This document shows positions 13,052 to 62,498 of a DNA stretch of 64,000 nt, in pieces. The DNA comes from Minisyncoccia bacterium. GTDB taxonomy: Bacteria; Patescibacteriota; Minisyncoccia; Moranbacterales; GCA-2747515. The DNA lies in NCBI GenBank assembly GCA_041738235.1, contig JBGSQF010000013.1, positions 129,583-193,582 of the forward strand. Direction: 5' to 3'. A model generated the notes under the pieces. It searched no databases, was not told the DNA's origin, and was given only the letters and a program-made list of their open reading frames with translations. The stretch's first letter is position 1. The number at the start of each line of letters is the position of its first letter. Both the position numbers and the translations under genes were made by a program.

Positions 13052-14215
13052 ATGAAGCTATTGATCAAGACATTTGGGTGTCAGCAAAATGTGGCGGATT
13101 CTCAGCGGATCGCGTCCTATTATATTGCACGCGGATACACTTTGATCGAAAATGATGAAAACGCCGATCTTATCGTGATCAATAGCTGTATGATACGGGA
13201 GAAGGCAGAAGAGCGGGTGTATGGATATATCCGGAATTTGCGCAAAATTCGTGGACCTAAGGCCTTACGGATCGTTCTGACGGGATGTATCGTGGGAGCA
13301 TCAGTGCGAGAACCAAGCGGAAAAATGAAGAAAAAACTCGAAAAACGTATTCCTGATGTAGAGCTCTTGTCGATCGATGAGGTGGGTTTTGAACATTTAC
13401 CGGTACGAAAGGAAGGCGAAAAACACGGTTGGGTAGTTATTTCTAACGGGTGCAATAATTATTGTGCATTTTGTATCGTGCCTTTTTCTCGTGGAAAAGA
13501 GGTCTCACGTCCTTATAAAGATGTTCTTGACGAGACAAAAGGAATGGTGGCAGAAGGGTATGAAAGCATCACACTTTTGGGACAAAATGTAAATTCCTAC
13601 GGGAGTGATCTGGTTTGTGAAGGACAATACGCGTTGCCTGATGGAAGAAGGGTGGATCCAGTTATGGTAAAACACTTGGGACGGTATCGTATTCCTACGC
13701 TCTTTCCCTATCTTTTGGAGGATGTGGCCAGGATCCCAGGAATCAAAACCGTTACGTTCACCAGCTCCAATCCGTGGGATTTTTCTGATGAGCTGATCGA
13801 TGTGATCGCGCGCAATAAAAATATTGACCGACTACTTCATCTTCCGGTGCAGTCGGGAAGTACCAAGATCATCAAAGCGATGAACCGATGGTATACACGA
13901 GAGGCGTATCTCGAACTTCTCGAACGAATACAAAAGCATATTCCCGAGGCAAGGTTTATTACCGATATTATCGTCGGATTTCCCGGTGAGACGGAAGAAG
14001 ATTTTGAAGAAACGGTTGATCTGGCACGTCAAGCCGGTTTTGTTCGTGCCTTTATCGCCTGTTATTCTCCTCGACCGGGAACGCATGCCACGAAAGAGAT
14101 GGCTGATGTAATCCCCTGGGAAGAGAAGAAGAGAAGGATGCAAGTACTTAACAAACTCATTAATCTTTCCCACCCAGGCGTGTCAGAGGGAAAGGATTGG
14201 ATACGAAGGTCGTAA
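13052..14215 (+). CDS. MiaB-like tRNA methylthiotransferase (radical SAM MTTase), short form without a TRAM domain.
   Basis: It has an N-terminal MTTase domain (FGCQQN...INSCMIRE) and the radical SAM CxxxCxxC motif (GCNNYCAFC). It stops at 387 aa, before any TRAM domain. Confidence 0.85.
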   Translation: MKLLIKTFGCQQNVADSQRIASYYIARGYTLIENDENADLIVINSCMIREKAEERVYGYIRNLRKIRGPKALRIVLTGCIVGASVREPSGKMKKKLEKRIPDVELLSIDEVGFEHLPVRKEGEKHGWVVISNGCNNYCAFCIVPFSRGKEVSRPYKDVLDETKGMVAEGYESITLLGQNVNSYGSDLVCEGQYALPDGRRVDPVMVKHLGRYRIPTLFPYLLEDVARIPGIKTVTFTSSNPWDFSDELIDVIARNKNIDRLLHLPVQSGSTKIIKAMNRWYTREAYLELLERIQKHIPEARFITDIIVGFPGETEEDFEETVDLARQAGFVRAFIACYSPRPGTHATKEMADVIPWEEKKRRMQVLNKLINLSHPGVSEGKDWIRRS

Positions 14216-14254: not shown

Positions 14255-14689
14255 ATGAAGCTCCCCGTCAAAAGATTTGATAAAGGGATAGCACTGCCCA
14301 AATATGAGAAATTGGCAGCCGGATTTGATTTCAGAGTACGAAAAGGAGCCACCTTTCAACCGGGGGAAATAAAGCCCGTTCCAGCAAACATTGCCCTTCA
14401 AATTCCGGACGGATACGTTTTATTAGTTGTTCCTCGAAGCAGTACGGCGTCTCGCATCGGACTCGGTATGCCGCATTCTATGGGTGTTATAGATCCCTAC
14501 TACTGTGGGGACGACAATGAGATCATGCTCATCTTTTAAAACATCACAAACCATATTGTCCGAGTAAAAAGAGGAGATATTTTGGCACAAGGACTATTAC
14601 TCCATTGTAAAAAAGTTGAGTTTGAAGAAGTGGATCATTTATCAAAATCAGAAAGGGGGGTCTGGAAACTTAAATATCAAAGAAAATAA
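14255..14689 (+). pseudogene. dut: dUTP diphosphatase (dUTPase) reading frame interrupted by an in-frame TAA at 14537..14539.
   Basis: The upstream segment carries dUTPase motifs 1-3 (AAGFDFR, PRSSTASRIGL, GVIDPYYCGD). Past the TAA the same frame continues through motif 4 (VRVKRGDILAQ) and reaches a stop at 14687..14689. Confidence 0.6.
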
Positions 14690-14700
14690 AAGCTGTTCTT

Positions 14701-15294
14701 ATGAAAAATACCCAAGCGATGCTTTTTGATGTCGACGGAGTGGTGATACGGCCGCCAAAACTTTTTAGCCAGCAATATCAAGAAAAGTTTCACGCGCCGA
14801 GTGATGCGTATTTGAGGGAGTTTTTTGGTGGCGTATTTCGCGAGTGCACGCTTGGCAAGCTCGATCTCAAGGAAGTGATGAGCGAGCGACTTATCGACTG
14901 GAGATGGAATGGCACGGTAGAGGAATTTTTGGATCTTTGGTTTACCTCGGAAAACTATCCGGAGAAAGCTCTCATAGCCAAGATACAGGATATTCGGAAA
15001 AGGGGTGTTCAGTGTTATCTTGCGACCAACCAGGAGAAGTACCGGACTGACTATATGAAAAAGGAAATGGGTTTTGGTGTGCTTTTTGACGGTATTTACA
15101 CACCCTTTGAGATTGGGTACAGAAAACCAGACCTTGAATTTTATACGTATATTGTGCGAGATCTTAGGATAAACCCAGAAAATATTGTATACTTGGATGA
15201 TGAAGTGGAGAATATCGAGAGAGCAAAAGAACTGGGCATTCTCGGACATGTATATTGCGATATACGAGACGTTCTAAAACTTATCGCACAGTAA
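14701..15294 (+). CDS. HAD-superfamily hydrolase.
   Basis: Motif I is LFDVDGVV. The protein is 197 aa with the HAD fold pattern. Confidence 0.8.
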   Translation: MKNTQAMLFDVDGVVIRPPKLFSQQYQEKFHAPSDAYLREFFGGVFRECTLGKLDLKEVMSERLIDWRWNGTVEEFLDLWFTSENYPEKALIAKIQDIRKRGVQCYLATNQEKYRTDYMKKEMGFGVLFDGIYTPFEIGYRKPDLEFYTYIVRDLRINPENIVYLDDEVENIERAKELGILGHVYCDIRDVLKLIAQ

Positions 15295-21261: not shown

Positions 21262-21282
21262 AACACGGTTGCCTATTTTTTC

Positions 21283-21658
21283 AAGGTGGGGGAGACGATC
21301 GCTTCAAGAAATGTCTTGGAGAGGAAAGTCCGGACACTTAACTACTGTCAAGTAGTAGTAACAGTAGCGGGCAATTCCCGCACGCCGCAAGGCGCGAGGT
21401 GCGAGCAGAGACGTCTCTTTTTGTAAAAAAAGAGACACCTCCAATAGAATGAGAAATATCATCTATTGTTTCGAGGTGAGCTTGCTGAGTGATCGGCAAG
21501 GTGAAACGGCTAAATCCTTACTGGAGTGCAAGGTCGAGTCCCAAGCAACAAGCTTAGGAAGTACCGCAAAGATCGTATTGGCAACAATACGACAAGATAA
21601 ATGATCGTTAGGAAGGTATAAAGCTTTCTGATACAGAATCCGGCTTATCGCCCACCTT
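21283..21658 (+). ncRNA. rnpB: RNase P RNA, bacterial type A.
   Basis: The P4 halves GAGGAAAGTCCGGAC and ACAGAATCCGGCTTA are present. A GGTGAAACGGC motif is present. The P1 helix pairs AAGGTGGG at the 5' end with CCCACCTT at the 3' end. Confidence 0.85.
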
Positions 21659-21736
21659 GAAAAAGTATGCAATTAGAAAAGGAAGATTGTTTTTGTATCA
21701 AGACTCGTGTTTACCACCCATAATTTCTAGAGAAGT

Positions 21737-42581: not shown

Positions 42582-44408
42582 TTATCGTTTAAGAACATTC
42601 AGAAATGCCTCGGGCGGAATATTTACACGTCCAGATGATTTCATACGTTGCTTGCCTTTTTTCTGCTTTTCTAAGAGTTTTTTCTTTCGTGAAAAATCTC
42701 CTCCATAGAGTTTTGCAATAACGTCCTTTCGGTAGGCACTTATGCTCGATCGAGCGATGATCTTCCCTCCAATGGCCGCTTGAAGCGCCACAACGAAGTT
42801 TTGTCTTGGGATCACCTCTTTTAATTTATCTACGATCTTTTTACCCTCAGAAAACGCTTGGCTTTTTGGAACGATCCGACTGAATGCCTCCACTACATCC
42901 CCAGCAACCAGAATGTCAATCTTTACCAGATCACTTGTTCGATACCCAATAAGCTCATAATTCATTGAAGCAAAACCCGAAGAGATGCTCTTGAGATCAT
43001 CATGAAAATTGACGATCACCTCCATTAAGGGCGCCTCAAATTCCAGTACCGCACGGTCAGCATCCAGGTACTGTGTATTTTTATAGGTTGAACGAAGCGA
43101 ACTAAGCAACTTCATTATGCCTCCCATGTATTCTGCCGGGGTGATCACCTCTAACTTTACAAAGGGCTCTGCAACGCTTTCAAGGGTTGAGGGATCAGGA
43201 TATTCAACAGGAGAATAGATGTGTTTCTTTTCTTTATTTTTTAATATGATCTCATAGACCACGCTTGGCGTTGTGATAACTGGGGAAAATTCAAATTCCC
43301 GCTCCAATCGGGCTTGGATGATCTCTAAATGGAGCATGCCGAGAAATCCACAGCGAAACCCACGCCCCAAGGCAAGATTACTTTCAGGCTCAAAAACAAA
43401 CGAAGCATCATTAAGGCGTAGCTTTTCCAAGGCATCTCGCATACCATTATAATCCTCTCCTTCTCTTGGATAGAAGCTGGCATACATTACCGGTCTCACT
43501 TCACGATATCCAGGAAGAGGTTTGATGGATATAGACTCCGCTTCTGGTATATCCACTCTGACCCTTTCTGTTTTTGACCTTGTGCTATAGACCGTATCTC
43601 CCACACGGCAAACGCTCACGCTCTTGAGTCCTGTGGCGATATAACCCACCTCACCTGCATGAAGTTTTCCTGTTTTGACAAGCGCTGGGAAAAAATAACC
43701 CACCTCAATGGCAATACCTTGTGTTTGTGTGGCAAAGTATCGAAGTATCTCATCTCGACCCACTTCACCATCAACTACACGAACATATGCCACAACACCC
43801 CTATAATCATCATATACGGAATCGAAGATCAGTGCACGGAGTGGCGCTCGAGGATCACCCTTAGGTGGAGAGATACGCGTGACAATAGTATCCAGTATTT
43901 CTTTTACTCCCAATCCAGTTTTTCCAGAAGCACAAAGAATATCTTCTTCTTTGCATCCTAAAATATGGATGATCTCTTTTTTTGTCCGTTCCACCTCAGC
44001 ATTTGGCAGATCGATCTTATTGACTACAGGTATGATCTCCAAACCCTGTTCAATGGCACTATAAAGGTTTGCCAATGTCTGCGCCTGAACACCTTTGGTT
44101 GAATCGACCAACAATACAGCTCCCTCTACAGCAGCAAGAGAACGAGACACTTCATATTGAAAATCCACATGGCCCGGAGTGTCTATAAGGTTGAGCACAT
44201 AATCCTTCCCCTGAAATACATAATTCATTCGTACAGGCTGGAGCTTAATAGTAATCCCTCGTTCACGCTCAAGATCCATCTGATCAAGAAGTTGTTCTTT
44301 CATCTTCCGATCTTCTACTGTATGTGTAACCTCAAGCATTCGATCTGCCAATGTGGATTTCCCATGATCGATATGTGCGATAATACAAAAATTTCGGATA
44401 TTCTCCAT
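42582..44408 (-). CDS. lepA: Elongation factor 4.
   Basis: It begins IRNFCIIAHIDHGKSTLADR, continues with a G-domain, and has the LepA C-terminal domain. It is 608 aa. Confidence 0.95.
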   Translation of the reverse strand: MENIRNFCIIAHIDHGKSTLADRMLEVTHTVEDRKMKEQLLDQMDLERERGITIKLQPVRMNYVFQGKDYVLNLIDTPGHVDFQYEVSRSLAAVEGAVLLVDSTKGVQAQTLANLYSAIEQGLEIIPVVNKIDLPNAEVERTKKEIIHILGCKEEDILCASGKTGLGVKEILDTIVTRISPPKGDPRAPLRALIFDSVYDDYRGVVAYVRVVDGEVGRDEILRYFATQTQGIAIEVGYFFPALVKTGKLHAGEVGYIATGLKSVSVCRVGDTVYSTRSKTERVRVDIPEAESISIKPLPGYREVRPVMYASFYPREGEDYNGMRDALEKLRLNDASFVFEPESNLALGRGFRCGFLGMLHLEIIQARLEREFEFSPVITTPSVVYEIILKNKEKKHIYSPVEYPDPSTLESVAEPFVKLEVITPAEYMGGIMKLLSSLRSTYKNTQYLDADRAVLEFEAPLMEVIVNFHDDLKSISSGFASMNYELIGYRTSDLVKIDILVAGDVVEAFSRIVPKSQAFSEGKKIVDKLKEVIPRQNFVVALQAAIGGKIIARSSISAYRKDVIAKLYGGDFSRKKKLLEKQKKGKQRMKSSGRVNIPPEAFLNVLKR

Positions 44409-44583: not shown

Positions 44584-45825
44584 ATGAGAATAAATAAAGT
44601 CCTTTTTACTCTTTTTCTTGTCACTACAATATCGCCTCCCTTATTCTCTCACGCACAAAACATCTCCGCCACCAACACATCGGTGGTTCCTCTCTATGTA
44701 TTTTCGCGAGAAGACTGTGCGCATTGCGCTGAGGAAAAACAATTTCTCGAGGAACTTGCTCAGCGAGACCAAACTATACAGATACAGATCTTGGACATTG
44801 GGGATGCAATCTACCACAAGCAATGGACAGAGATCGCACGAATAAATAAACTATCACTCGCCACCCCGATCACCGTAGTAGGCAATACCGTGCTTCAAGG
44901 ATTTGATTCGGCCGATACGACCGGCAAAAGGATCGAACAGATCATCGACAAAAGCAGAGGAAAAGAAACGCTCTCCCCTGAGGAAATGATTGCGATGGGG
45001 GCAAATGGAAGTGTGGAGTCTTTTGAAGGATCTAGCTGTGCCGATGGGGCAACTGTTTGTGCGTTCCCCGCTCAGCAACCTCTCGTGGTCTCCCTTCCCT
45101 TTGTTGGAGCTACTGATCTGAGTAAATACTCCCTTCCCTTCCTGTCTGTGGTATTGGGTTTTGTTGATGGATTCAATCCCTGTGCAATGTGGGTTCTAGT
45201 CACCTTTCTTATCATCCTCACGCAAGCCCGATCGCGAAAACGAATGTTTCTTATCGCCGGGGTCTTTATCTTTGCAGAAGCTGTATTGTACTGGCTCATT
45301 CTCAACGTATGGTTCACAACATGGAATTTTGTTGCTTTGGACCGTGTTGTGACCCCACTCATTGGATTACTAGCCCTTTTAGGAGGAATGTTTTTCTTGT
45401 ACGAATGGAGTCAAGCCACAGGGACCTGCAAGATCATTGGCGCATCCACAAGAGAAAAATTCATGCGTCGCATCCATTCTTTGTCCAATAAACCAGTTGG
45501 TATAGCTATGGTATTGAGTGTTGTTGGACTTGCTTTTTCCGTTAACATTATTGAATTTGCTTGTTCTATAGGTATTCCTCAAGCATTCACGAAGATATTG
45601 GAGTTCAACCACCTCAATCTCTTTCAGCAACAATCCCTGATGGGAATCTATATCTTCTTCTATATGATCGATGACCTGGCGGTGTTTGCCCTAGCTCTCT
45701 GGAGTATTGACAAGATCGGGCTTACTGCCAAATACACCACTTGGACCAACCTCATTGGCGGGATCCTCATGGTCATTCTTGGATTCCTCTTCCTTTTTGC
45801 CCCACAAACACTTCGTTTTTTATAG
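44584..45825 (+). CDS. Thioredoxin/glutaredoxin-like domain fused to a DsbD/CcdA-like multi-pass membrane domain.
   Basis: An N-terminal signal/TM segment is followed by a Trx-like domain with CAHC. The C-terminal transmembrane domain has two xNPC-like half-sites (GFNPCAMWV and EFACSIGIP). The start is trimmed to MRINK. Confidence 0.55.
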   Translation: MRINKVLFTLFLVTTISPPLFSHAQNISATNTSVVPLYVFSREDCAHCAEEKQFLEELAQRDQTIQIQILDIGDAIYHKQWTEIARINKLSLATPITVVGNTVLQGFDSADTTGKRIEQIIDKSRGKETLSPEEMIAMGANGSVESFEGSSCADGATVCAFPAQQPLVVSLPFVGATDLSKYSLPFLSVVLGFVDGFNPCAMWVLVTFLIILTQARSRKRMFLIAGVFIFAEAVLYWLILNVWFTTWNFVALDRVVTPLIGLLALLGGMFFLYEWSQATGTCKIIGASTREKFMRRIHSLSNKPVGIAMVLSVVGLAFSVNIIEFACSIGIPQAFTKILEFNHLNLFQQQSLMGIYIFFYMIDDLAVFALALWSIDKIGLTAKYTTWTNLIGGILMVILGFLFLFAPQTLRFL

Positions 45826-45931
45826 TCTTTCTAGAAACTCTTTGACAAGAAATACTTTTTCTTGTTATCTTGTTATATCCGTACACAGTCGTGCGGATCT
45901 TTGAAAAAAACAGCCAAGGAGAAGATCGAAA

Positions 45932-46282
45932 ATGAAAAAAATTGAGATGTGTTACGACCCCGCGTGCGCGGAGGACCCTCCGCACGCACTCCTTTTGGAC
46001 GAGCAGGGGAGCAAGGTATGCCCTATCCCGCTCTACTCCAAGGACCACGCCAGGGAGGCGATCCTTGAGTGCGGTCGCTACTGGTCGAGCACAGAACGCT
46101 CGCGTCTCTTGGAAGCAGTGGAAAGTTTTCCACTCCCCAACAAGATCCCTGCGGTATTTGAAGGGGCGACCCTCTGCGAGTTGGTTGCCGAATATGAGGA
46201 ACATCTCAGGCGGAGGTCTAAACCAAGCAGTCTCGTTATCCTAAGGTTCTACTACCTGCCTCAGTCAGGATTCATTGCCTGA
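45932..46282 (+). CDS. Hypothetical GC-rich small protein.
   Basis: A 116-aa ORF of about 55% GC in a 42% GC background. The GC richness creates overlapping antisense ORFs. I recognise no domain. Confidence 0.4.
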   Translation: MKKIEMCYDPACAEDPPHALLLDEQGSKVCPIPLYSKDHAREAILECGRYWSSTERSRLLEAVESFPLPNKIPAVFEGATLCELVAEYEEHLRRRSKPSSLVILRFYYLPQSGFIA

Positions 46283-46406
46283 CCTCAATATTGGGAAATA
46301 GACTTTCCGGCATAAGAAACCAAGCGCTCCCAAGGATAGTATTCCGAGGGAGCGCACACATTTTTATAAAGCTCAAGGGAAACAAGATATTCCCCCATAA
46401 TTACTA

Positions 46407-58071: not shown

Positions 58072-58581
58072 TTAGGACATTTTCACCAATTTTTCCATAA
58101 CTATACCAGAAAAAATAGCAAAAATAACCACATAAAAAGCAAATATGAGAGAAAACCCCCAACCAAAGTAGTATGCCATGACTGGCAAAAATGTGAGTTG
58201 AACATTGCGATTGTTCAGAAATACCGTAATAAGTGAGTATTTCATTCCGTGATCCTTCAACTCTCCTAGAAGCGGGAAAAGTACATAGGGCGGCCCAGAG
58301 ATCACCATAGAGGCCAGTAATGTATAAAGCCATCCCCTGAGACCCGAGTCATGACCAAGATGCTTCCCTATCGCCTCTGGTTTTACAAAGACATTGTTCA
58401 AAAACATAATAAAAAATACAAATGCCAAAATTGGTAATATAGACAAAAACGTTTTCAGAAAATCCTGAAAAGCAGCAGAGACCAACGTGGGAGTTGCAAA
58501 GAATAAAACTCCATATAAAAAAGTAATTGCCAAAAAGAACATCATCCCACCCGAAAGTTTTTTTAGACAAGTCATCATCAA
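58072..58581 (-). CDS. Predicted permease, C-terminal half-gene (COG0701 / ArsP-like).
   Basis: A 169-aa polytopic protein. It overlaps the upstream gene by 4 nt (ATGA), which suggests translational coupling. Confidence 0.5.
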   Translation of the reverse strand: MMMTCLKKLSGGMMFFLAITFLYGVLFFATPTLVSAAFQDFLKTFLSILPILAFVFFIMFLNNVFVKPEAIGKHLGHDSGLRGWLYTLLASMVISGPPYVLFPLLGELKDHGMKYSLITVFLNNRNVQLTFLPVMAYYFGWGFSLIFAFYVVIFAIFSGIVMEKLVKMS

Positions 58582-59018
58582 AATATCCTAAGAGTTATCG
58601 TCGTAAGCATTGCAATAAGAATTGCGAGGAAAAAATTCAGAGCGTTTCGCATAAATGCAAAACGTTTCCCCAGATGAGCCGACTCCAAAAAAATCATCGG
58701 GATCCCAACGGTTGTCCAAGAAAAGATAAATGCCGTCACTACCAACAAACTCACACCCTCCTTCAAAAGCTCTCCCCCAACCACATAACTGGCAATAGGA
58801 ATACCGAAGGAAAAACTCCCAGCAATTGTTCCGATCAGCGGATCAACCAGATAGTTCCCGGTAAAGATCTTTGGATAATACTCCTTAAACAGTGGATTTA
58901 AGATGCTCAACACCAACAACACCCCCATCAAAATCGGCAGGGATGCTTGTATAGATTGAAAAGTTTTTCGAAGCGAGCTTCTTATGTCCTGCATATAAAA
59001 GTCTATTTGTATTCCCAA
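58578..59018 (-). CDS. Predicted permease, N-terminal half-gene (COG0701 / ArsP-like).
   Basis: A 146-aa polytopic protein paired with the 58072..58581 gene. Confidence 0.5.
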   Translation of the reverse strand: MGIQIDFYMQDIRSSLRKTFQSIQASLPILMGVLLVLSILNPLFKEYYPKIFTGNYLVDPLIGTIAGSFSFGIPIASYVVGGELLKEGVSLLVVTAFIFSWTTVGIPMIFLESAHLGKRFAFMRNALNFFLAILIAMLTTITLRIF

Positions 59019-59455
59019 TCTGAATTACCTCCGTATCTTCGCATATATGCGAAAAAATTCGATCTGCTTGCCACAGAAAGTGTTTCGGGATCTATCTGAG
59101 CAATATCCTCCCATTGTATTTCGTCACATTTGTGCGGCTCCATGATCTTTGCTTTGCCAGAAACTAGTCGTGCAATATATGATGGCGAAACCCAATGCTG
59201 GTTCTCCTCCGGAAGAATATGATCTACCACTTCCAAAAGCTCCACCACTTCAATATCGATATCGTGCTCCTCTTTGATTTCCCTTGTTACGGCGTCTTCA
59301 CATTTCTCTCCAAACTTGACACCCCCACCCGGGAAGTCCCACTTTCCCACTTCGTTCCTCACCTGTTTCCCTCACTTGGCTAAAAAAACTTTTCCTTCAT
59401 CATTAAATATCATCGCCCCACACCCCACCCCGATATAATCTTTTCCTTTTATCAT
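59003..59455 (-). pseudogene. NUDIX hydrolase reading frame interrupted by an in-frame TGA at 59372..59374.
   Basis: The upstream segment MIKGKDYIGVGCGAMIFNDEGKVFLAK ends at the TGA. Past it the same frame continues as GKQVRNEVGKWDFPGGGVKFGE...REIKEEHDI, the Nudix box. The TGA occupies the position of the conserved Arg of the LAKRG motif. The ORF track reports only the GTG-initiated downstream part. Confidence 0.55.
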
Positions 59456-59513: not shown

Positions 59514-59873
59514 TCACTCATTACGTAACTCTTCGATCGCCATGAGGATCCAATTTCCTCTTAATTTATCTTTCATCCCCACTAAATCTTCATAACTCCA
59601 CCAACGTGCGTCCAGTATCTCATATTCCGGGTAGTGAAGCTCCCCTCCGATAATTTGTGCTTCAAAAGTGCCGACATATTCTATGGTGTCCAGCACAAGA
59701 TCAATACTCAGCTCTTCTTTTATCTCTCGAACAAGCGCCTCTTGGTCACTCTCCCCACTCTCTCTTTTTCCACCCGGAATATAGTAGATATCATTATTTT
59801 TTGAGCGCGTGCTTAAAATATTTCTATCCTTGATAGAGATCCAAGCGAGTTTATCAATATATTGATTATTCAT
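59514..59873 (-). CDS. NUDIX hydrolase (MutT-like).
   Basis: The Nudix box reads GGKRESGESDQEALVREIKEELSI. Confidence 0.8.
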   Translation of the reverse strand: MNNQYIDKLAWISIKDRNILSTRSKNNDIYYIPGGKRESGESDQEALVREIKEELSIDLVLDTIEYVGTFEAQIIGGELHYPEYEILDARWWSYEDLVGMKDKLRGNWILMAIEELRNE

Positions 59874-59938: not shown

Positions 59939-60586
59939 CTATTTTATCTTGAGTACATTCACGACTTTCCCATTGATGACGAAGTTGTCTTCTGAGGTAA
60001 GAAATATAGGTTTGTGCTTGATATCCGTAGACTCCGGCATGAGGACAATATTGTGCCCATCGTGCGAGCGATAGGTTTTGACGGTTGCCAGGCCGTCGAT
60101 AATGACCAACACCTTATCACCCGTTTCATAATTACGAGCGGATTTGTCCACCAGAACAAAATCACCATCCTCTATCGTCTTGCCATTCACCTTAGCCTTG
60201 TTCATAGACGTTCCGGAGATCTGCACCGCAAACACATCACGATTCCGCACGATATTCCTCGAAACTTTAAGATATCCTTCCACGTATTCATCTGCAAAGG
60301 CCAAGGCTGTTCCAGCATTTGCCATGCCTAAAACAGGCACATCCATAAATGTTTCCATTGTGACCCCTTTGAGTTTTATACCTCGATCCTCTGAAGTTCG
60401 TTGTATATACCCCTTCTCCTCTAGTTCATTGAGATAGAGAAAGAAACTGCGAATGCTCTTGAGCTTGAGTCCTAATTTTCCAGCCTCCCCTTGTATCTCT
60501 CGAACTGTAGGCATCTGCTTGTGCTGAGAAAAATACCCCTTGATCGCTTGAAGCACGATCTTTTGTTTTGGTGTGAGCAACTCCAT
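59939..60586 (-). CDS. lexA: LexA repressor.
   Basis: The N-terminus is a winged helix-turn-helix. The C-terminal S24 peptidase domain has the catalytic Ser-Met dyad (ISGTSM) and the catalytic Lys (KHKPIF). Confidence 0.85.
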   Translation of the reverse strand: MELLTPKQKIVLQAIKGYFSQHKQMPTVREIQGEAGKLGLKLKSIRSFFLYLNELEEKGYIQRTSEDRGIKLKGVTMETFMDVPVLGMANAGTALAFADEYVEGYLKVSRNIVRNRDVFAVQISGTSMNKAKVNGKTIEDGDFVLVDKSARNYETGDKVLVIIDGLATVKTYRSHDGHNIVLMPESTDIKHKPIFLTSEDNFVINGKVVNVLKIK

Positions 60587-60838: not shown

Positions 60839-62329
<1,491 letters not shown>

Positions 62330-62498
62330 AATAAATACGATCGTTGCGAGTCGCTTTGTTCGTATCAACAAAAGCGAAAGAATTTCAATTTACATTGAGA
62401 ACTCTCAACAATGTTTTCTGAACTGTGTTCAGATTGTTTTGAATAGACTCTTGTTTTTTTAGTATCTGACCACCGTTACCGGGGTCATCTCCTAAAAA

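Follow-up and report, generated by a model that had tools for sequence, protein, structure and literature searches.

The window analysed here, a 64-kb stretch of DNA, contains a gene (dut) for dUTPase, which guards DNA against uracil, and this gene is cut by a single stop codon, which raises the question whether this gene is a genuine and recent casualty, an artefact of the consensus sequence, or a gene whose stop codon is tolerated by the translation machinery. The first ORF (14255..14539, + strand) encodes 94 amino acids and is closed by a TAA at 14537-14539. After this TAA the same frame resumes for another 49 codons (NITNHIVRVKRGDILAQ...YQRK) until a second TAA at 14687-14689, a continuation that is far above chance and that reads in full NITNHIVRVKRGDILAQGLLLHCKKVEFEEVDHLSKSERGVWKLKYQRK. 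Conserved motifs I, II and III (AAGFDF, PRSSTA and GVIDPYYCGD) are encoded in the 5' part of the gene (14255..14536, + strand, 94 codons). Motif IV (RGDILAQ, within KRGDILAQ) lies past the stop in the same frame, in an untranslated remnant of 49 codons (14540..14689, + strand) that ends with the basic C-terminal tail typical of the clade. Motifs I-IV thus correspond to the family patterns AxGxDL-like, PRSS, GxIDxxYxG and RIAQ-like. On the joined sequence, the dUTPase profile PF00692 matches residues 14-135 and thereby spans the stop (E 4.4e-18, 65.7 bits with a gathering cutoff of 22). The N-terminal piece alone scores 36.8 bits, and the 49-residue tail by itself still hits positions 82-122 of the profile (E 0.001). 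The joined sequence aligns over its whole length with intact homologs of 144-150 aa, with no gap at the stop. The original prediction of a dut gene cut by one in-frame TAA between motifs 3 and 4, with no frameshift and with an intact motif 4 downstream, is thus confirmed by the ORF map, by the Pfam match across the stop, by the gapless alignment of homologs and by the presence of RGDILAQ in frame. The product is also present in the protein collection (P0003), from NCBI (407,907-bp contig) and from Logan, and only the 94-aa form is recorded.

The codon that preceded the stop can be read from the relatives of the gene. Homologs of dut, and also of the second interrupted gene discussed below, belong mostly to Patescibacteria (CPR), including Moraniibacteriota, Parcubacteria and Doudnabacteria, among others. 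Closest among the full-length relatives are P0001 (73% identity, 144 aa) and P0002 (68%, 146 aa), and both are intact; a hand count in the alignment gives 32 of the 49 residues of the remnant as identical to P0001. At the P0001 locus a MiaB-like gene, dut and a HAD hydrolase follow each other in an order matching the window, and at the P0002 locus a HAD gene lies ahead of dut. Both neighbours are intact in the window: the upstream MiaB-like radical-SAM methylthiotransferase (13052..14215, + strand), which has 80-82% identity to its orthologs and served as synteny anchor, and the downstream HAD-family hydrolase (14701..15294, + strand), giving the order MiaB-dut-HAD as in L003. Comparison with orthologous dut loci, which had been proposed as a check on the lesion, supported it. 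In the DNA alignment the two closest orthologs (L003 and L006) read ...TT(C/T) CAA AAT... at the site where the window reads ...TTT TAA AAC..., and dut was uninterrupted in all ten GTDB-representative Patescibacteria loci recovered with an alignment of 8 sequences as query. Since the orthologs have CAA (Gln) where the window has the premature TAA (14537..14539, + strand), one C-to-T transition at 14537 accounts for the stop, and the ancestral base at this position is C. At protein level the column is variable: 6 of 28 homologs have Q there, 15 have Y, 3 have H and the rest have single other residues.

Profile, motifs I-IV and predicted fold together place dut in the homotrimeric dUTPase superfamily. 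Its best sequence match in the PDB is YncF (E 1.9e-16). Scores against the NCBIfam equivalogs are below cutoff (79.8 vs 103 for NF001862 and 77.2 vs 102.55 for TIGR00576), and the gene is no uninterrupted ORF, as it is cut at codon 95. The structure was modelled with AlphaFold2 on the intact ortholog P0001, which has the same length as the joined window sequence (mean pLDDT 93.3). Judged on this model, the dut product has the jelly-roll dUTPase fold: the model matches YosS and YncF of B. subtilis and the M. tuberculosis dUTPase with TM scores of 0.80-0.91, and for YosS and YncF (TM 0.8-0.9) the rmsd is 1.6-1.8 Å. Residue 95 falls within the strand formed by residues 91-96 of the model, which is followed by two more strands, 102-104 and 111-117, and by the C-terminal arm. 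In trimeric dUTPases, the active site is built from one subunit's motif III together with motifs I, II and IV of its neighbour (PMC12524310). Because the stop lies in a core beta-strand and two more strands and motif 4 are lost, the 94-aa fragment should be inactive.

The clade to which dut belongs has a peculiarity of its own at the C-terminus. P0001-P0049 and the window gene (14630-14689) carry KSxRxKW plus a Lys/Arg-rich tail in place of the catalytic motif V, and the motif V sequence RGGFGSTG is kept in the more distant P0051, P0052, P0067 and L016-L018. This motif-V-less dUTPase clade may merit biochemical study of its own.

How old is the lesion? Within dut we found no sign of relaxed constraint, that is no second stop, no indel and no faster divergence than in the intact relatives. 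The N-terminal part of the window gene has a mean identity of 63.0% to 26 outgroups, vs 61.3% for P0001 and 61.4% for P0002. For the C-terminal part the values are 46.8% for the window, 50.7% for P0001 and 48.8% for P0002, a gap that amounts to one or two residues. With neither a second lesion nor accelerated divergence, the lesion is recent. Another Patescibacterial MAG (GCA_027016395.1, JALVZZ010000132.1; L026:1501-1960, and L027) has a dut with a 1-nt frameshift inside motif 4, where frame 0 ends with ...KKGEKLAKAY and a stop and the +2 frame goes on as GILVKFEKAEFNEVDKLGKSKRPVW. This frameshift is present in both the NCBI and ENA assemblies, and it indicates that occasional decay of dut is not unique to the genome of the window.

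A second gene of the window, encoding a MutT-like NUDIX protein on the - strand, is interrupted as well. Its 5' part (59375..59455, MIKGKDY...FLAK) comprises 27 codons from the start that is common to its homologs, followed by a premature TGA (59372..59374) that replaces an invariant Arg and is seen in both Logan runs, and by a remnant of 122 codons (59003..59371) that includes the NUDIX box and then ends with a stop. The Arg in question (KRGK) is invariant over 19 aligned homologs. Its codon is AGA in three relatives and CGA in one, so the change to TGA was either A to T or C to T. A C-to-T signature common to both lesions was considered and rejected: dut fits it, but with AGA in three of four relatives A to T is at least as likely for the NUDIX gene. 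The claim that this gene is broken in the same manner as dut therefore holds in so far as there is one in-frame nonsense codon and no frameshift, but not for the codon itself, which is TGA and not TAA. The related claim, that two nucleotide-pool genes each carry a single nonsense codon, stands, with TAA in dut and TGA in the MutT-like gene and both stops in two Logan runs. An intact, shorter NUDIX paralog of 119 aa lies directly upstream of the broken gene (59514-59873). On its other side (58072-59018, - strand), two ORFs of 146 and 169 aa overlap by 4 bp and each weakly matches the N-terminal half of the ArsP_1 profile; they may form a two-gene permease pair rather than a split gene. In a relative (L021), a gene of 149 aa is likewise found 3' of the NUDIX gene.

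Before any biological meaning is given to these stops, it must be asked whether they exist in the DNA. Logan contigs of SRR28170474 and SRR28170473 agree with the window at 100% identity over 1395 and 1107 bp, respectively, TAA included, and two further contigs, again from both runs, do so over 1606 and 1450 bp including the TGA of the NUDIX gene. Over the ~5.5 kb in which these four contigs overlap the window there are 0 mismatches. The two accessions are different runs, whose samples may be related and whose reads may underlie the window's own assembly, and the Logan evidence is assembled consensus and not read-level allele counts. If the stop in dut were a consensus or sequencing error, the true base would be C and the gene ordinary and intact. 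A one-base difference is the smallest artefact possible, the site has runs of T and A on its two sides (TTTTAAAA), and should the public runs be the same data as the assembly, a systematic platform error would recur in each. However, three assemblies concur (the window and two Logan runs), and ~65 genes have no frameshift or other stop despite many homopolymers. Moreover, stops are rare among random errors, as a stop results from only 4.4% of all single substitutions that the genes of the window could undergo, yet two genes have one. At this rate two error-made stops imply ~45 errors in the window, in conflict with the absence of mismatches. Since four contigs from two runs match both stops and no other gene is damaged, a sequencing or assembly error is very unlikely.

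The same contigs bear on the question whether the whole population has lost the gene. TAA could be the majority or consensus state while an intact CAA allele coexists, in which case the species would keep a working dut. Assemblers give one path per site, and the Logan contigs are short (1.1-1.6 kb), as expected at low coverage or in a strain mixture. In addition, the dut lesion is very young, and young deleterious alleles are often unfixed. On the other hand, the TAA allele was assembled in both runs, and no intact allele of the species was found in a search of 5.8 billion proteins, where the best non-self match had 73% identity, or in JGI metagenome contigs, in which an exact-DNA search found neither the TAA nor the CAA allele. 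A polymorphism of this kind therefore seems improbable.

Translation through the stops is a further way in which the genes could have remained functional. Leaky termination or recoding would imply that TAA is read as Gln by a near-cognate tRNA-Gln or a suppressor, that the TGA is read too, and that useful low levels of full-length protein result. The downstream frames are indeed perfectly kept, the TAA stands at a position that is Gln in relatives, which is the residue that a near-cognate tRNA-Gln would insert, and two genes with related function are hit. Nevertheless, neither stop is conserved in any ortholog. At the dut site all 28 aligned homologs and all ten GTDB loci have sense codons. 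The original prediction suggested a search for readthrough context, but what was found at the dut stop is an ordinary terminator without downstream structure. No true terminator context is more common in the window than TAAA (14 of 26 TAA stops), TGAG closes 4 of its 14 TGA-ending genes, and a 101-nt stretch that surrounds and follows the dut stop folds no better than shuffled sequences (z -0.29). No suppressor tRNA was found in the 64-kb window, whose sole tRNA is a tRNA-Thr (CGU). Among bacterial stop codons UAA leaks least, and to our knowledge no bacterial code reassigns TAA. The TGA of the NUDIX gene stands at an invariant Arg and not at Gly or Trp, as in known TGA reassignments. The 65 curated genes of the window end in TAA (26), TAG (25) and TGA (14) at a high coding density, and since all three stop codons close densely packed genes, the code is the standard bacterial one. 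TAA ends aspS (25006), priA (39316) and lepA (42582..44408), in agreement with the earlier statement that it works as a normal terminator elsewhere. Taken together, functional leaky termination or recoding is very unlikely.

An alternative genetic code is ruled out by the three functioning stops, the high coding density, the position of the TGA at Arg and the 63 complete ORFs, and the dut stop is no evidence for such a code in this Patescibacteria genome. What real recoding looks like is illustrated by a related dut (L023:1501-1851, from ENA ERZ27284394 and many other samples) in which TGA occurs three times in frame, twice at near-invariant Gly columns of the dUTPase clade (IPD-TGA-YVLL and KQ-TGA-DMIAQ). 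In the database these TGA codons are translated as Trp, and this dut ends early, at 116 aa. The pattern points to an organism with a code-25-type code (TGA=Gly), so that the gene can serve as a positive control for real recoding, and nothing comparable is present in the dut of the window. We also considered and rejected a split dUTPase made of two pieces. The first in-frame ATG, GTG or TTG past the stop is a TTG at 14582, and the SD-like AGAGGAG ahead of it represents merely the K-R-G-D codons. As a start at this TTG loses the RGD of motif 4 and gives a peptide of only 35 aa, a working enzyme made of two pieces is implausible.

The remainder of the window was searched for comparable damage. 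No other truncated genes were found: a Pfam scan of the 63 other ORFs gave only domain matches that are complete at both ends of the profile, and six candidate pairs of adjacent same-frame or overlapping ORFs in the window, also scanned with Pfam, contained no truncated gene. The MiaB-like gene aligns end to end with its orthologs at 80-82% identity outside the inserts. The orthologs (L003:993-2453 and L006:2884-4197) contain two variable low-complexity insertions of up to ~60 and ~40 residues, and the window gene is shorter solely through the absence of these internal inserts. Gaps in the gene map are accounted for by rRNA, RNase P and tRNA genes, with the 16S rRNA gene at 60841-62335 (- strand) and the RNase P RNA at 21282-21663. 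The 16S rRNA gene stands alone, with a LexA-like repressor gene (59939-60586) downstream instead of a tRNA and the 23S rRNA gene, and the rRNA genes are thus unlinked. A region of ~580 bp (45826-46406) holds only mutually overlapping ORFs, 45773-46204 (- strand) and 45932-46282 (+ strand), neither with a Pfam match. Between ~27000 and 31000 the GC skew changes sign, with a cumulative skew maximum near 30 kb, and in the same region gene orientation switches from mostly + to mostly -, with the genes convergent. The skew and the flip in orientation suggest that a replication terminus lies within the window.

Both of the interrupted genes among the ~67 of the window are (d)NTP pyrophosphatases. 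With two of 67 genes hit at random and three genes in the class, the chance of this is roughly 0.1%, for a class that was chosen with hindsight. The shared role of both broken genes in cleaning the nucleotide pool is mildly curious. It could also be taken to mean that the joint loss of dut and the NUDIX gene is no coincidence, and that the lineage is shedding pool sanitation, either as a mutator or as a host-dependent CPR cell without need for it. Such shedding would fit a dUTPase clade that is already without motif V and the frameshift in GCA_027016395.1. We nonetheless regard it as unlikely, and rarer still would be a variant of it in which leaky stops serve to throttle the expression of both genes. 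A literature search on Patescibacteria pseudogenes gave no matches. If a genome-wide survey were to find loss confined to pool-sanitising genes, this would suggest that ultra-small, host-dependent bacteria have relaxed the hygiene of their DNA precursors.

The original prediction had left three explanations side by side, a recent lesion, an error, or readthrough of the stop. Of these, the recent lesion has gained from the CAA of the orthologs and the lack of decay, error has become unlikely, and readthrough has found no support. We therefore propose that the interruption is most probably a real and recent CAA-to-TAA nonsense mutation, which has made the chromosomal dut an ordinary young pseudogene in an uncultured Patescibacteria (CPR) bacterium with a small genome. 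A single C-to-T transition turned Gln codon 95 (CAA) into TAA, so that translation would halt in a core beta-strand and yield a 94-residue fragment. This fragment, devoid of two further jelly-roll strands, motif 4 and the C-terminal arm, would be unable to fold or trimerise properly or to form the inter-subunit active site, and the 49 codons past the stop would be a remnant that has not yet decayed. In at least two sequenced samples the mutant allele is the consensus state. The MutT-like NUDIX gene 45 kb away has been struck by a second nonsense substitution, also a single one, that put TGA in place of an invariant Arg.

E. coli and M. smegmatis do not survive a dut knockout, although some species are without any dut (PMC12524310). 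The lethality elsewhere makes the loss of an only dut somewhat unexpected. The existence of dut-less species makes it plausible in a reduced, host-dependent bacterium, and more so if an enzyme encoded outside the window compensates. The cell would tolerate the loss of dut, for example through relaxed selection in a host-dependent organism or through a paralog outside the window. Taken alone the finding matters little, other than that dut and the NUDIX gene should be annotated as pseudogenes and not as two short hypothetical ORFs each.

Interruption by a nonsense substitution is a kind of feature that is already known. With ordinary nonsense pseudogenes dut shares a one-base path from an orthologous sense codon, intact syntenic orthologs and a remnant that is still in frame. 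It differs in lacking further decay, which places it at the youngest end of the range, and it is maybe not yet fixed. The nearest known enzymes are the solved homotrimeric dUTPases, namely B. subtilis YncF (2xcd/4aoo), the prophage protein YosS (2xy3/2baz) and M. tuberculosis Dut (1sjn). In contrast to these, the window dut is interrupted and belongs to a Patescibacterial subclade without the glycine-rich motif V (RGGFGSTG). The NUDIX gene resembles MutT-like NUDIX hydrolases (PF00293; TIGR00586, mutt) in its NUDIX fold signature and NUDIX box, and is 54-81% identical to aligned homologs of ~143-170 aa, some of them annotated as MutT or 8-oxo-dGTP diphosphatase. Unlike MutT, it is cut at an invariant Arg 27 codons in, and its score stays under the MutT equivalog cutoff (55 vs 97.9). 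Lastly, genetic code 25 (TGA=Gly) is used by Gracilibacteria and Absconditabacteria, which belong to the same superphylum as the organism of the window. Here, however, TGA, TAG and TAA all end genes, the one in-frame TGA is at an Arg site, and the stop in dut is a TAA.
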